From an uncultured Candidatus Saccharibacteria bacterium (GTDB taxonomy: Bacteria; Patescibacteriota; Saccharimonadia; CAILAD01; BJGX01), in NCBI GenBank assembly GCA_964481235.1, contig CAYZYH010000006.1:1-58817 (forward strand): a DNA stretch of 58,817 nucleotides, given 5' to 3'. Within the stretch, counting starts at the first letter, position 1, and each line of letters begins with the position of its first letter. A program made the translations under genes and the position numbers. Positions 1 to 6,360 of this stretch are shown here, in pieces. The notes under the pieces were generated by a model. The model did not search any database. It was not told the DNA's origin and was given only the letters and a program-made list of their open reading frames with translations.

Positions 1-613
1 CTTTTCTTACCAAGTCATCTTGAAACAAGAACATAGAAGAAAGAGAAACCTACTTAAAGGCTAGTATAGCATATCTAAGTAGTAAATACAAGGTTATTAC
101 AGAGGCAAGTATAATTTATAAGTAAAAGGCTCTGAAACAGAATATGTTTCAGAGCCAAAATAGAAGGTTGCGCAACCAGGTCGTCTACCCGATTCTAGTA
201 AGAGCAATGTGGTACTCTTTGTAGAAACTAAGTAAACATTGACCTGGGCACGACTAGGAGTTTATCCTTCTCCCTACCAGCACATTTAAGAGCGTGGTGT
301 AGCTCTGTACTGGCATCTAGGTCTCAACTTACGCCTCAGTGAGAATGAGCCTCCGGTATACCCCTCCCCGGAAAGAGCGTTTTCTTTTTATCGTACAAAG
401 GTGCCACCACATTAGCAAACGCGACAGTTCTCGTATGTCGAGGTCCGGTCACCTACCAGACCAACGCTAGAGAATACGTCTCTAGATACAACTAAGCACG
501 GCTAGTGCCTAGTTGCTACGTCGCTCTACCCCGTCACTAGCCGTCACGAGGTATGGCAAGCGATTATTAAACCAATAGGTTCTATATATGAATATATGCC
601 CTTTAGCCATTGG

Positions 614-654
614 TTGCAAGCATAAGTAAAACCCCTCACCAACTAGGTGAGGGG
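614..654 (-). terminator. Intrinsic terminator module (hairpin cccctcacc/ggtgagggg then U-run on the minus strand) with a conserved tail; copy 1 of a repeated module
   Basis: On the minus strand, a GC hairpin immediately after the stop of ORF 660..1019 is followed by TTTTACTTATGCTTGCAA. The same ~40-nt module recurs at 992..1029. Confidence 0.6.
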
Positions 655-659
655 GAATT

Positions 660-1019
660 TTATAATTCTTCTAGAATTGCCTTTACAGTATGGATAATTA
701 AGCCACGAAACAACAGCAAAAAACTAACTGTTACCATGCCCATACCAAGCCAAAATGCTGCCGGGGTTACTGCGTGGTTAGGGTTGGCGTAGCCACCCAA
801 TGCAACACAGATAATAGTGACGCCACCGATCAGCCAAACCCCTAGTAGACACACTACCTCGGGCCAAGTAATCTGATTACCAGGCTTCGACTCGTCACTA
901 GAGCTGTTTCCGGGTTCATTGTTTTGAGTCATTTGTACTCTCTTTTGTAAGGTGTACTTTGCTCGCTCGATTATAGTGTAAACTGATAGTTTTGCAAGCA
1001 TAAGTAAAAACCCCACCAA
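660..1019 (-). CDS. Small hydrophobic (predicted multi-TM) protein, unknown function
   Basis: 119-aa ORF with hydrophobic stretches (LLGVWLIGGVTIICVALGG, GMGMVTVSFLLLF). An intrinsic terminator follows directly. GC is higher than the host-like genes further along. Confidence 0.4.
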   Translation of the reverse strand: MVGFLLMLAKLSVYTIIERAKYTLQKRVQMTQNNEPGNSSSDESKPGNQITWPEVVCLLGVWLIGGVTIICVALGGYANPNHAVTPAAFWLGMGMVTVSFLLLFRGLIIHTVKAILEEL

Positions 1020-1029
1020 TTTGGTAGGG
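992..1029 (-). terminator. Intrinsic terminator module, copy 2 (hairpin cccuacc/ggugggg plus U-run and conserved ACTTATGCTTGCAA tail)
   Basis: Lies immediately downstream of the stop of ORF 1038..1814 on the minus strand. The stem forms with one G-U pair and is followed by TTTTTACTTATGCTTGCAAAA. Confidence 0.55.
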
Positions 1030-1037
1030 TGAATTTG

Positions 1038-1814
1038 TCAACTTATGATTGCAGGCTCGCTATGCCTTGCCTTGTGGGTGTTGATAGCCGCCAAATGGTT
1101 CTCGTAAGCCTCAAGCTTATCTATGGCTTCATCTAAGCGTATGTCGGTTCTAAAACCCTCAAACTGCAGGCGTCGCCAAGTAGGAATAGGGCTAAGAACA
1201 ACAAAACCTTCTTTAAAAATAGTTTTGCAACCAAGTTTACGAGCAAGTATATTAATTTTTGCTAAAGCATCGGCATCTACGGCTTGGTTTAGCCAGTCGG
1301 GTAGCCAAAAGTAATCTTCATCTATAACCATTCTAGGGTGTATGGCTGTATAATCACGAGGGAAACCTCTTACATACTCTACTGGCTCATCAAAGCCTTC
1401 AGAAACAAAAACAGACTCTATATAGACCTTGCGGGCCTCACATTTAGCAATGTATTCGCGAAGAGTCTCTATAGCTTCTTTACTAACACTCATGCATGGG
1501 TCGCAATATGATGCTGGGCTGCAAATAGCTTCTTCAACCTGTTGCCAAGAGAGATCGATTGGTACAGTTATACTAGAATTGTTAACGCCACAATTACCAC
1601 ATTTTCTAGTTACGTATGCTCCTTGATTAAAACAATCTTGTGGATCCGTTAGACTTATATGACGGTAAGGACGTATTAGGCAACCATAAATTTCTAGGCC
1701 AGCGCCGTTAAGTAATTTTATAGTCTCAGGGTCTAATACAATGTCTCTTTTACCAAATAAGCTAATGGTCTTGTACTTTACCTTGCCACCTCTTAGGTGA
1801 GTTCTTGTAGACAC
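1038..1814 (-). CDS. Cys-rich hypothetical protein (possible metal/Fe-S binding), unknown function
   Basis: 258-aa ORF with clustered cysteines (RKCGNCGV; CSPASYCDPC). I recognise no canonical family motif. It lies immediately downstream of the MVP gene but has its own terminator. Confidence 0.45.
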   Translation of the reverse strand: MSTRTHLRGGKVKYKTISLFGKRDIVLDPETIKLLNGAGLEIYGCLIRPYRHISLTDPQDCFNQGAYVTRKCGNCGVNNSSITVPIDLSWQQVEEAICSPASYCDPCMSVSKEAIETLREYIAKCEARKVYIESVFVSEGFDEPVEYVRGFPRDYTAIHPRMVIDEDYFWLPDWLNQAVDADALAKINILARKLGCKTIFKEGFVVLSPIPTWRRLQFEGFRTDIRLDEAIDKLEAYENHLAAINTHKARHSEPAIIS

Positions 1815-1901
1815 TACTTATTTCTCCTAACTTTAAAGGTTCGAAAAACTAAAAGTATTGTAGGTTTAAGTGACTACTTTTGTCAATTATATAAAAGTAA
1901 T

Positions 1902-1940
1902 AAAAAAAGCGGTTAATAAGATAAAATCTTATTAACCGCT
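1902..1940 (-). terminator. Rho-independent terminator of the MVP gene
   Basis: The minus-strand hairpin AGCGGTTAATAAG / CTTATTAACCGCT (13-bp stem) is followed by a run of 7 U. It sits ~35 nt after the MVP stop. Confidence 0.7.
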
Positions 1941-1972
1941 GTGGTTTTTAGCCCCTAAGAGCTAATTGTTCT

Positions 1973-4561: not shown

Positions 4562-4713
4562 GCCTCCCCTTTCTTAGGGAATATTGGATATTTGTAAAAG
4601 GACTTGCCCTGATACCTAAATTCTCCTTTTCTGTATCTAGCATCAAAGCGGGTTTATTCTACAACAAAAACCCCATATGAGTCAATGGTTATTTTGCTTG
4701 TGCTAACAGATTA

Positions 4714-4742
4714 TTGATAGCTACTTAGTAAAATGCTACAAT
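4714..4742 (+). promoter_or_regulatory. Sigma70-like promoter for ORF 4866..5396
   Basis: TTGATA (4714-4719), a 17-nt spacer, then TACAAT (4737-4742), ~120 nt upstream of the ATG. Confidence 0.45.
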
Positions 4743-4865
4743 ACCTGCCAAGAGTCTTAATGTGCTTGTCACAGCCAATGAGGTATCTCTAGGCGATTGA
4801 CTCTTGTAATGCACCTATCCCCACCATAGCTTCTGGGCGAGCCCCAGAGCGATTGGAGTAATACC

Positions 4866-5396
4866 ATGACTACCTCTACCCAATCAAAAGTTGATTGGTT
4901 TATAGAAAAACTACGTGGTGACAACATCATATTGCGCATGAGCGCAACTAGTCATGCCTTTGGCCAGCAAAGAGCCAATATTGCCAGAGGTGAGGCTTTT
5001 GCCTATTACTCAGATGCCGAGATGCCCTTGGCCTGCCACATACTCTACAGAGCTTGGGTAGAGCCAAACGGCAAGACCTACCGCTACGAGCTCACTCAAA
5101 CACCTTTTCCGCACTGGGTAGCTGAGTGGAACGACACCATAGAGAAGCTCACAAAGGGCTGGGCTAGAGATTGGTTAAGTGAAGACAATAATGTTTTTAC
5201 TCTCATTAAGCCTAATGGTAGAGTACGTGTGAACTCACATCCTACTGTTCTTACTCACTTGTCGCGCATGCACGGTATGTTGCTTGGTCTGCAAGACGAT
5301 CCGTTTGCCACCGTACTTAGAGATATTGCCACTAGGCGTATTGATGGCGCTATTCGTAAGATGAATAGCGACTGGGCTCAGACCTTAGGTATGTAG
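4866..5396 (+). CDS. Hypothetical protein (176 aa), unknown function
   Basis: Clean ORF with a promoter-like element upstream and an intrinsic terminator directly downstream. No recognisable motifs. GC is higher than the host-like background. Confidence 0.5.
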   Translation: MTTSTQSKVDWFIEKLRGDNIILRMSATSHAFGQQRANIARGEAFAYYSDAEMPLACHILYRAWVEPNGKTYRYELTQTPFPHWVAEWNDTIEKLTKGWARDWLSEDNNVFTLIKPNGRVRVNSHPTVLTHLSRMHGMLLGLQDDPFATVLRDIATRRIDGAIRKMNSDWAQTLGM

Positions 5397-5402
5397 TCTT
5401 TA

Positions 5403-5427
5403 CCCCGATGAAAATCGGGGTTTTTAT
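5403..5427 (+). terminator. Rho-independent terminator
   Basis: CCCCGATGAAAATCGGGG hairpin followed by TTTTTAT, 7 nt after the stop of ORF 4866..5396. Confidence 0.75.
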
Positions 5428-5705
5428 ATCAAAAAAGACCTCCGAATTGCTCGAAAGTCCCTTTTGGTGGAGCGAGTATGTAAGAATTTTCACCTTATCA
5501 CTGCCGAGGTTAAGCGATGGCAGAATTTAATTGGCGTTGAGTACAACAGGTAAGATAGAAGTTATCTCTGACTTCCGGGAGTGACTTACACCTAAACTTA
5601 CAAACGAGTTATAAACTTGGGTGCTAGCCAGAACCCTTGAGAGGCTCTGGCCTTATGGCTGGAATAACGCTCCAGCCCATCACGGCCCATGCGGGCTGAT
5701 TGTTC

Positions 5706-6194
5706 CTACTGCTTCGACTTGATCCTTGGCAGGACCATCTCGGGGTCGAAGTCGAGGTAGCTACGAGCCTCGGAGATGGCCTTGTAGAGGCCTTCGTAGT
5801 CGAGGAACTTCAAGGTGCCAACCCTGATGCTCTCGACAGCGGTCTCCGACCGTCGGTCAGCTCCGATCACCGAGACGTAATACTCGGCCAACACCAGCTT
5901 GGGCTGGTTGGGGTCGGGCTTGATGTCGCGGGTGACCGAGGTGAACAGCTGAACCGAGATGACGACGCCACCGAGGACGTAGTACTTGGGGGTGCCGAGT
6001 GCTCCCTCATCGACCTCTTCCAGAGGCTCTTGCAGTCCTGCGGCCGTCGTCTGGAGTGACGTGGTGACGAGCACCAAACATCGCTCCTCACGATCGTGCT
6101 CATCTCGCTGTCGAGCCAACTCTTCAGCCGACTCGACGATCAGACGCTGATCGCGGTCTTCGTGAACCTTTTCGACAAGGCCCATGGCTTTCAC
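5706..6194 (-). CDS. Hypothetical acidic protein (162 aa) in a strikingly GC-rich (~60% by eye) segment
   Basis: The longest ORF in a segment whose composition (GC-rich codons, overlapping antisense ORFs 5700..6059 and 5867..6103) differs sharply from all neighbours. It is Glu/Asp/Arg-rich with no recognised family. Confidence 0.45.
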   Translation of the reverse strand: MKAMGLVEKVHEDRDQRLIVESAEELARQRDEHDREERCLVLVTTSLQTTAAGLQEPLEEVDEGALGTPKYYVLGGVVISVQLFTSVTRDIKPDPNQPKLVLAEYYVSVIGADRRSETAVESIRVGTLKFLDYEGLYKAISEARSYLDFDPEMVLPRIKSKQ

Positions 6195-6321
6195 TCTCCT
6201 GACGTTGATGGGTAAGAACTATGGAAATAGTATCATATATAGTCACAAATGTCAATAGCACCTTCTTTGGTTAATAACAAAAAGACCAAGGATATACCTG
6301 GTCGCTTTGTTGTAATTATTA

Positions 6322-6360
6322 CTGGTGGAGCTGGAGGGAATCGCACCCTCGTCCACAAGG
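6322..6360 (-). other. tRNA 3'-end-like fragment (T-arm plus acceptor 3' strand plus CCA), possible att-site remnant
   Basis: Minus strand reads GACGAGGGTGCGATTCCCTCCAGCTCCACCA. That is a 5-bp T-stem (GAGGG/CCCTC), a 7-nt T-loop, a 7-nt acceptor 3' strand, a discriminator and CCA. There is no matching 5' acceptor, D-arm or anticodon arm upstream, so it is a partial tRNA. It sits at the GC-composition boundary of the 1-6.3 kb island. Confidence 0.35.

Follow-up and report, generated by a model that had tools for sequence, protein, structure and literature searches.

The window analyzed here, i.e. the whole stretch of 58,817 nt, comprises positions 1-58,817 of contig CAYZYH010000006.1 (GCA_964481235.1), apparently the entire contig, from a metagenome-assembled genome (MAG) of Candidatus Saccharibacteria (TM7). 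Its first 6.3 kb carry a gene (mvp) that encodes a major vault protein (MVP) homolog, and four small open reading frames (ORFs; o119, o258, o176 and o162), and lie directly 3' of ssrA, the transfer-messenger RNA (tmRNA) gene. We found that positions ~100-6322 are a flexible gene-turnover interval between conserved anchors, not a single integrated element. Judged by its sequence, the only true integration footprint in this stretch is an 858-bp cassette (5465-6322) that holds a single gene and lies by ssrA. The whole reading that we favor, which combines a hotspot, the ssrA cassette, lineage-restricted small genes and a single-gene mvp module, is in our judgment likely to be correct.

A tempting misreading of this DNA is thereby corrected: the apparent tRNA stub belongs to an intact tmRNA gene, and the apparent 6-kb island would be a hotspot with one tiny integration event. 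Current knowledge is not overturned, as tmRNA-linked islands and bacterial MVP homologs are both already established.

A variable interval between ssrA and the RRM gene

The original prediction had taken the sequence at 6322-6360 for a partial tRNA, which proved to be the 3' end of a complete ssrA gene. The two borders of the interval are:

6323..6713, minus strand: ssrA, complete tmRNA gene (ARAGORN; Rfam RF00023)
1..100, minus strand: where the conserved core begins, upstream of the RRM-protein gene, itself just past the window edge

ARAGORN called ssrA on the minus strand at these coordinates with the tag ANTLISKIKAAFTLPTLAPAYA, and the Rfam model RF00023 matched it with 122 bits (gathering score 47) over model positions 1-374 of 374. 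The 31-mer of the supposed tRNA fragment was the ssrA 3' end and occurred only once in the window. The tag peptide ended in ...LAPAYA, as it did in the related loci L002, L003, L123 and L124; the last 38 nt of ssrA were identical in these four and in L125. Foreign sequence began at 6322, immediately 3' of the intact gene.

Eight related loci had the same anchors, GT4-ssrA at one end and RRM-aldolase-SmpB-ArgRS at the other. Between the anchors, read from ssrA to RRM, the genes were as follows:

Window: o162 cassette - o176 - MVP - o258 - o119
L002 (MVP 95% identical): 121-aa ORF - o176 - MVP - o258 - o119
L003 (MVP 70% identical): 110 aa - acyltransferase - MVP - 257 aa
L123: small ORF - acyltransferase
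L124: small ORF - acyltransferase
L125: 2.9 kb, unrelated genes
L203: o162 homolog - o176 homolog - 73 aa - 254 aa

The content of the interval thus differed in each lineage, and MVP was present in two lineages and absent from four (L123, L124, L125 and L203 have the same flanks and no mvp). On the RRM side, only the final ~130 nt before the gene aligned in L003, L123, L124, L125, L126 and L203, conserved sequence resuming at about window position 100. Therefore everything from there to 6322 belongs to the flexible interval. It would consist of three layers: i) the cassette adjoining ssrA; ii) the lineage-restricted o176, o258 and o119; and iii) mvp, a single-gene accessory module.

The RRM protein was 92-98% identical across relatives that are otherwise only about 60-70% identical, and this strong conservation probably causes the assembly break at which the contig ends. 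The contig of the sister MAG, L002, ends (position 14582) at the point identical to window position 1, just before the RRM gene. In L124, which has no MVP, a 1010-aa protein lies between RRM and aldolase (L124:10801-13833) and, judged by eye, appears to have N-terminal repeats and a histidine-kinase-like C-terminus; if this reading holds, the RRM-aldolase gap would be a second variable spot.

The cassette at the 3' end of ssrA

The features of the cassette and its borders are listed in order from ssrA; promoter-like and terminator-like sites, here and below, are matches from a consensus scan only.

6331-6323, minus strand: proximal attachment (att) core GCTCCACCA, the last 9 nt of ssrA, a direct repeat with the distal core
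6303-6284, minus strand: replacement ssrA terminator hairpin (consensus scan)
6255-6227, minus strand: strong promoter-like site of the cassette (consensus scan)
5706..6194, minus strand: o162, the sole cassette gene, 162 aa from GTG or 159 aa from ATG at 6185
5474..6322, minus strand: cassette body, 849 nt (858 nt with one core copy), delimited by comparison with the relatives' loci
5465..5473, minus strand: distal att core, the 9-nt sequence GCTCCACCA of the ssrA 3' end in direct repeat, read from the sequence
5426..5464, minus strand: displaced native ssrA terminator AAAGGGACTTTCGAGCAATTCGGAGGTCTTTTTTGATAT, identified by alignment to relatives

Immediately after ssrA, a hairpin terminator AAAG(G/A)G...TTTTTT was found in L002, L003, L123, L124, L203 and L211. 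In the window this native terminator sits 858 bp downstream, directly behind the second GCTCCACCA: the sequence there, AAAGGGACTTTCGAGCAATTCGGAGGTCTTTTTTGATAT, aligns with the sequence directly 3' of ssrA in L002, L003, L123, L124 and L211, and the distal GCTCCACCA is the sole second copy of the core within the ssrA-RRM interval. Between the two lie, in order after ssrA, a terminator hairpin, the promoter-like site, o162 and a 232-nt non-coding arm. The cassette was absent from L002, L003, L123 and L124, in which ssrA abuts the native terminator, so that relatives present the site unoccupied. The site-specific integration footprint of the original prediction therefore stands in part: accessory DNA does lie 3' of a t(m)RNA-type gene, a classic target for integration, but only the 858-bp cassette is bounded, not 6.3 kb.

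The cassette junction is no assembly artifact: it was reproduced by five independent assemblies, one contig of which (L216, from SRR30350728) aligned to window 4634-6651 and spanned the ssrA-cassette-o176 junction with 99.1% identity. The cassette body showed no nucleotide similarity to any other fetched locus and had no further copy in the window. Its protein, o162, had no match in Pfam, PHROGs, PADLOC, NCBIfam or a PDB sequence search; its predicted model (predicted local distance difference test score, pLDDT, 78) combines a long N-terminal helix with a beta sheet and had no informative structural neighbor. L216 was found to carry a frameshifted o162 allele (P0126, 105 aa) whose out-of-frame tail is the alternative ORF 5867..6103, and the cassette gene may be pseudogenised in this one population.

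The same architecture recurred with homologs of o162. In L211, a 70%-identical homolog lay between two copies of core plus terminator 789 nt apart; the repeat used the same nine bases and extended over ~45 nt including the terminator. [quoted passage not shown] Moreover an element-side arm, CCGTTGAGTTTATATCTTT, was common to L204 and L211. Behind the extra core and terminator, each of these two loci carried a further unit after the o162 cassette: an ORF of 65-71% GC in L211 (5656-6219) and a 751-aa fn3-repeat protein in L204 (805-3955). These further units suggest that unrelated cargo accumulates in tandem at one and the same att site. Beyond the second core, no ssrA-like att remnants were found in the window (allowing up to 8 mismatches in 23) or in L002 and L003.

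We propose that site-specific recombination in the terminal 9 nt of ssrA (core GCTCCACCA) brought the cassette in: an attB core at the ssrA 3' end would have recombined with attP on a small terminator-restoring element. Such an event would leave ssrA intact and push the native terminator 858 bp downstream, behind a second copy of the core, while the cassette would supply ssrA with a replacement terminator, followed by its own promoter and o162, of very foreign codon composition. The expected attP-type junction would be CATACTC-GCTCCACCA-GTAATAATTAC. If the cassette is mobile, an empty site should read ...CCTCCAGCTCCACCA joined to AAAGGGACTTTCGAGCAATTCGG, and the circular or attP form ...TTCTTACATACTC joined to GCTCCACCA and then GTAATAATTACAACAAAGCG; the cassette arm would be CCGTTGAGTTTATATC, and core sites would take the form GCTCCACCA(AAAG).

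No recombinase was found in any of the loci with o162 or a homolog of it (window, L203, L204, L205 and L211), and Pfam, PHROGs, PADLOC and NCBIfam gave no recombinase match for any of the five ORFs of the stretch. Thus an integrase encoded elsewhere must have moved the cassette, which we infer to be non-autonomous and to resemble a cis-mobilizable element (CIME). CIMEs are flanked by att-type repeats, carry no recombination or transfer genes, and accrete in arrays at one integration site. The cassette likewise has the 9-nt core on both sides and a single gene without a family match within; unlike in the known systems, no autonomous partner element was found for its att sites, and searches of viral contigs gave no hit to the o162 family or to the arm motif CCGTTGAGTTTATATCTTT. 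A scan of viral contigs with the 32-nt ssrA 3' end, aimed at attP, gave 38 hits, which were rejected as they were all permuted two-piece tmRNA genes. These contigs (L085-L122) have the tag ANDNNFALAA and 33-35% GC and are unrelated to the window lineage; that they contain exactly the last 32 nt of ssrA, with identical acceptor and T-arm sequence, is a striking coincidence.

The nearest described counterpart is the set of ssrA islands of Dehalococcoides (McMurdie et al. 2011, PMC3146451), in which a streamlined genome has strain-specific units in tandem immediately downstream of its single-copy tmRNA gene, each bounded by ssrA or by a direct repeat of that gene's 3' end. Some of those units lack integration genes and were discussed as possible cis-mobilizable elements; the repeats measure 20 bp, the T-loop is the insertion point, and a serine-recombinase (DsiB) module is present in 16 of 31 islands (PMC3146451). 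The Saccharibacteria loci share with them the streamlined genome, tandem units 3' of ssrA, 3'-end direct repeats and integrase-less units. On the other hand, the window core coincides with the final 9 nt of ssrA (acceptor 3' strand and CCA), and the window unit is 0.8 kb with one gene, a recombinase having been found in no locus. If the proposal is right, integrase-less ssrA cassettes would show single-gene exchange at a fixed site in reduced Saccharibacteria genomes, with each cassette's terminator preserving proper termination of the essential tmRNA gene.

Of the four Logan contigs starting at the cassette junction, three have their first base exactly 30 nt inside ssrA and one 34 nt inside. 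These starts were considered as excision evidence (population heterogeneity at the junction) and rejected, since co-occurring species have the last 38 nt of ssrA in identical form, which by itself would break a k-mer assembly at this point.

The history of mvp and other accounts of the stretch

All five ORFs of the original prediction, mvp included, were confirmed in place. The features of mvp are:

1973..4561, minus strand: mvp, full-length major vault protein homolog, 862 aa (Pfam, phmmer, AlphaFold2, Foldseek)
4685-4656, minus strand: promoter-like site of mvp (consensus scan)
1940-1908, minus strand: terminator of mvp (consensus scan)

The protein matched the Pfam families MVP_shoulder (2e-27), Vault_3 and Band_7, and in phmmer its residues 478-774 were collinear with PDB vault chains (2e-20). 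The AlphaFold2 model (pLDDT 64, moderate) comprised N-terminal beta repeats, an alpha/beta shoulder and a single helix of 125 residues; Foldseek matched it to rat, human and rabbit vault chains (~1e-23) and to the murine R1-R7 fragment (~3e-7). As modeled, the window MVP is a complete vault-shell homolog, with repeats, shoulder and cap-helix in MVP order. Its length (862 aa) is similar to that of eukaryotic MVP, of the reported bacterial homologs (bioRxiv 10.1101/872010) and of viral MVPs (bioRxiv 10.1101/2023.11.10.566534), and it shares with the eukaryotic protein the beta repeats, SPFH-like shoulder, very long cap helix and short C-terminal region in the same order. Sequence similarity to eukaryotic MVP, however, is detectable only from residue ~478 on, and the host, an ultra-small Saccharibacterium, is unlike the reported ones.

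The original prediction had noted that eukaryotic vaults carry vPARP, TEP1 and vault RNAs and that nothing comparable is known in bacteria. Bacterial MVP homologs have already been described (Myxococcales, Cytophagales and Oscillatoriales; bioRxiv 10.1101/872010) and are abundant: the family has at least 5913 proteins, with 505 confirmed matches across many phyla in a species-representative genome collection, and occurs on 237 IMG/VR viral contigs, many of them >100 kb. No paper linking MVP with Saccharibacteria or the candidate phyla radiation (CPR) was found in the searched literature. The nearest relatives of the window MVP are all Saccharibacteria. The IMG/VR homologs (L217-L296 among the 237 contigs) are full-length and 38-49% identical to the window MVP, many of their contigs being 100-500 kb; these may be true large phages or misclassified cellular DNA. 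MVP is common in CPR and on large phage-like contigs, and its neighborhood is not conserved, which, if it holds up, would direct the search for bacterial vault function away from operon partners.

In a housekeeping tree (aldolase, SmpB, ArgRS and RRM), the MVP-bearing L003 grouped with the MVP-less L123 and L124, the window lineage lying outside. Since L003 is nested among genomes without MVP, the distribution is patchy and calls for two or more losses, or else two or more gains at one locus. Between the window and L003, MVP identity (70% at the amino acid level) was close to that of housekeeping proteins (68%), which slightly favors old residence with losses; mvp may therefore be ancestral to the family-level clade and have been lost several times, a history slightly favored on sequence grounds, or else it was exchanged repeatedly at this hotspot by recombination in the conserved flanks. 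MVP GC exceeded that of its flanks by +0.09 to +0.19 in 12 of 17 CPR-labeled loci, while in other phyla the difference was -0.05 to +0.11 and mostly near zero; as the excess is common to the window lineage and L003, which are long diverged, it is a persistent property of the gene and no sign of recent arrival.

The alternative that survives best, which we regard as possible though the less probable course, is that mvp, alone or with one neighbor, was gained separately in the window and L003 lineages through homologous recombination in the ssrA and RRM flanks after DNA uptake. It would account for the patchiness of MVP in the clade and for its wholly different neighbors in the two lineages (those in L003 are unrelated to those of the window), and it fits the third-codon-position GC (GC3) of mvp, which is above that of every host gene in the window, and the wide transfer of MVP, which is found in many phyla and on 237 viral contigs. 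Set against it are i) the match between MVP divergence (70%) and housekeeping divergence (68%); ii) the closest MVP relatives, all from Saccharibacteria; and iii) the GC excess in both lineages and in most CPR MVP genes, which does not indicate recency.

For the cassette, it is very improbable that the 858-bp insert is a non-autonomous MITE-like (miniature inverted-repeat) transposon, with GCTCCACCA as its 9-bp target-site duplication. DDE transposases commonly leave duplications of nine bp, so the repeat would fit, as would an insert without a recombinase. [quoted passage not shown]

According to the original prediction, positions 1-6322 would be one island inserted in a tRNA-type gene, with the integrase and target beyond the left edge and the ORFs encoding vault accessory or cargo proteins. 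This model is largely refuted and in our view very improbable. It draws on the elevated GC of the stretch, on its position 3' of ssrA and on MVP-less relatives with the same flanks. GC was indeed 47.2% at positions 1-6322 versus 38.9% in the remaining 52 kb, so an atypical composition is confirmed, but the rise was uneven: in 500-nt windows GC peaked at 0.57 (5751-6250), was 0.50-0.54 within mvp and was only 0.36-0.40 in windows 1251-2000. Relative to the 50 host genes of the window (mean GC3 0.324, sd 0.048), GC3 was 0.767 for o162 at 5706..6194 (z +9.3), 0.481 for mvp (z +3.3, exceeding every host gene in the window), 0.480 for o176 (4866..5396) and 0.425 for o119 (660..1019), but a host-like 0.317 for o258 (1038..1814). 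Beyond the left edge, where an intact tRNA and an integrase had been expected, L001, an independent 32.5-kb Logan contig that carries the exact MVP protein and is 100% identical to window 1-6352, continues into genes for the RRM protein, class I aldolase, SmpB, ArgRS, a 669-aa protein and an AddA-like helicase; neither integrase nor tRNA was found among these housekeeping genes, over 8 kb. Within the window, the remainder outside the stretch consists of ordinary housekeeping genes, and no recombinase was found among the 38 ORFs scanned against Pfam (about two-thirds of the ORFs of at least 120 aa). Furthermore, the target gene ssrA is intact and adjacent, and no ssrA-like repeat lies at or near the RRM-side boundary. 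As for acquisition, L123, L124, L125 and L203 do have the same flanks without mvp, but mvp occupies the same locus in a relative, L003 (68% housekeeping identity), where it is syntenic while all its neighbors differ; the original prediction had listed such a finding among those that would refute it. Finally, the four small ORFs never occurred with MVP in 76 unrelated MVP loci (among 80 others fetched), and three of them occur without MVP.

Least credible of all is an assembly or binning chimera of the MAG: the window is a whole MAG contig that ends where the sister MAG contig ends, and several Logan contigs break exactly at the ssrA end, but L001 runs from the ssrA end over the left edge into housekeeping genes at 100% identity, L216, from another sample, crosses the ssrA-cassette-o176 junction at 99.1%, the same synteny exists in L002 and L003, and the breaks are explained by sequence common to co-occurring species (38 nt at the ssrA end; RRM at 92-98%).

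The favored reading, a hotspot with one ssrA cassette and a single-gene mvp module, has several points weighing against it: i) no integrase, excised circle or same-strain empty site was found, so that only architecture and recurrence speak for a mobile cassette; ii) the window repeat is just 9 nt; iii) in L203 an o162 homolog follows the native terminator without a second core, and may simply be a resident gene there; iv) seven genomes cannot settle gain versus loss of mvp; and v) several other CPR genomes have mvp immediately 3' of a tRNA gene.

Such tRNA-adjoining copies of mvp were seen in four CPR-type genomes, 150-1000 nt downstream of the tRNA 3' end (L006:683-1026, Val; L048:3155-3432, Asn; L058:9775-10001, Asn; L010:366-1419, Arg). 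They hint at t(m)RNA-linked mobility, with no flanking repeats seen: tRNA 3'-end repeats around mvp were absent from L006, L048 and L058, and none brackets mvp in any of the four, the one 15-nt repeat of the tRNA-Arg 3' end in L010 (position 593) included. In the window, L002 and L003, likewise, no att-like repeats flank mvp.

The small neighboring genes and a candidate RNA

The other genes of the interval and an ORF-less unit next to the RRM gene are:

4866..5396, plus strand: o176, transcribed divergently from mvp; terminator 5402-5421
1038..1814, minus strand: o258, Cys-rich orphan protein of host-like composition
660..1019, minus strand: o119, small, probably a membrane protein; promoter and terminator from the consensus scan
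125..585, minus strand: ORF-less structured unit, candidate non-coding RNA (ncRNA) of ~460 nt (stops in all frames, fold, conservation)

Each ORF had been predicted to form its own promoter- and terminator-bounded unit. The consensus scan gave a promoter-like and a terminator-like site for every unit except o162, which has no terminator on its own strand, its candidate terminator hairpin being on the opposite one. For o119, the promoter-like site at 997-970 falls inside the longer ORF, so the true start is likely the ATG at 929 (89 aa); o119 was found only in L002 (78% identity), where the gene call is 90 aa. Homologs of o176 were 90% identical in L002 and 58-60% identical in L203 and in L204/L205, which have no MVP. 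For o258, just three distant homologs were found among 1.84 billion representatives; L205, again without MVP, has two paralogous copies of it beside its o176 homolog. None of o119, o258 and o176 matched Pfam, PHROGs, PADLOC or NCBIfam, and the PDB sequence search, which covered o162, o176 and o258 but not o119, gave no match for o176 and o258 either. The 257-aa and 118-aa ORFs of L003 were considered as diverged orthologs of o258 and o119 and rejected, no similarity being found.

These ORFs had also been proposed as vault cargo or accessory proteins. By tblastn, o119, o258, o176 and o162 were all absent from the 76 unrelated MVP loci, and the only matches among the 80 other loci were the two fetches of the 95%-identical sister contig. 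Homologs of o162, o176 and o258 occurred together without MVP in L204 and L205, and those of o162 and o176 in L203. This occurrence together without MVP, and the absence from the MVP loci, argue against dedicated vault partners. No counterparts of vPARP, TEP1 or vault RNA were identified.

The ORF-less unit at 125-585 lies between a repeated terminator-promoter module (635-591) and a strong terminator (156-128). Its fold had a z-score of -7.9 against shuffled sequence. Compared with L002, it was 89.6% identical at the nucleotide level (92.1% in its core), while mvp was 88.5% and the host flank 81.6% identical; its 3' half was also found upstream of RRM in the distant relative L126 (L126:20-196). 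Across three sequences, 95.8% of cells pair and compensatory changes affected 7 of 48 pairs, against 2.3 +/- 1.2 in shuffles and 0-1 in slid controls. Rfam gave no match to the unit, a permissive-threshold search returning only chance-level hits. Together the evidence is suggestive of a new structured ncRNA upstream of the RRM gene, which is a concrete, testable object.

One further reading connects this candidate RNA with mvp, such that Saccharibacteria MVP would form vault-like cages with the unit as their RNA component. If true, ultra-small Saccharibacteria would make a genuine vault-like ribonucleoprotein, its RNA encoded on the same strand as mvp. We hold this bacterial vault ribonucleoprotein to be very doubtful. 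The unit is absent from the MVP-bearing relative L003, which makes an RNA-MVP link unlikely, and the contig of L126, which has the 3' half, ends there.

A module combining a terminator tail and a promoter separates o258, o119, the RNA unit and the RRM promoter, and it looks as if a regulatory cassette was reused in the making of the small units. Its sequence GGGGTTTTACTTATGCTTGCAA occurs twice on the minus strand (1013-992 and 635-614), including before o119, and its tail TTTTACTTAT a third time at 127-118. Elsewhere in the window, amid the housekeeping genes, 17094..17576 encodes a SET-domain protein and 28669..29205 a protein with a PaaX central (Cas2-like) domain.

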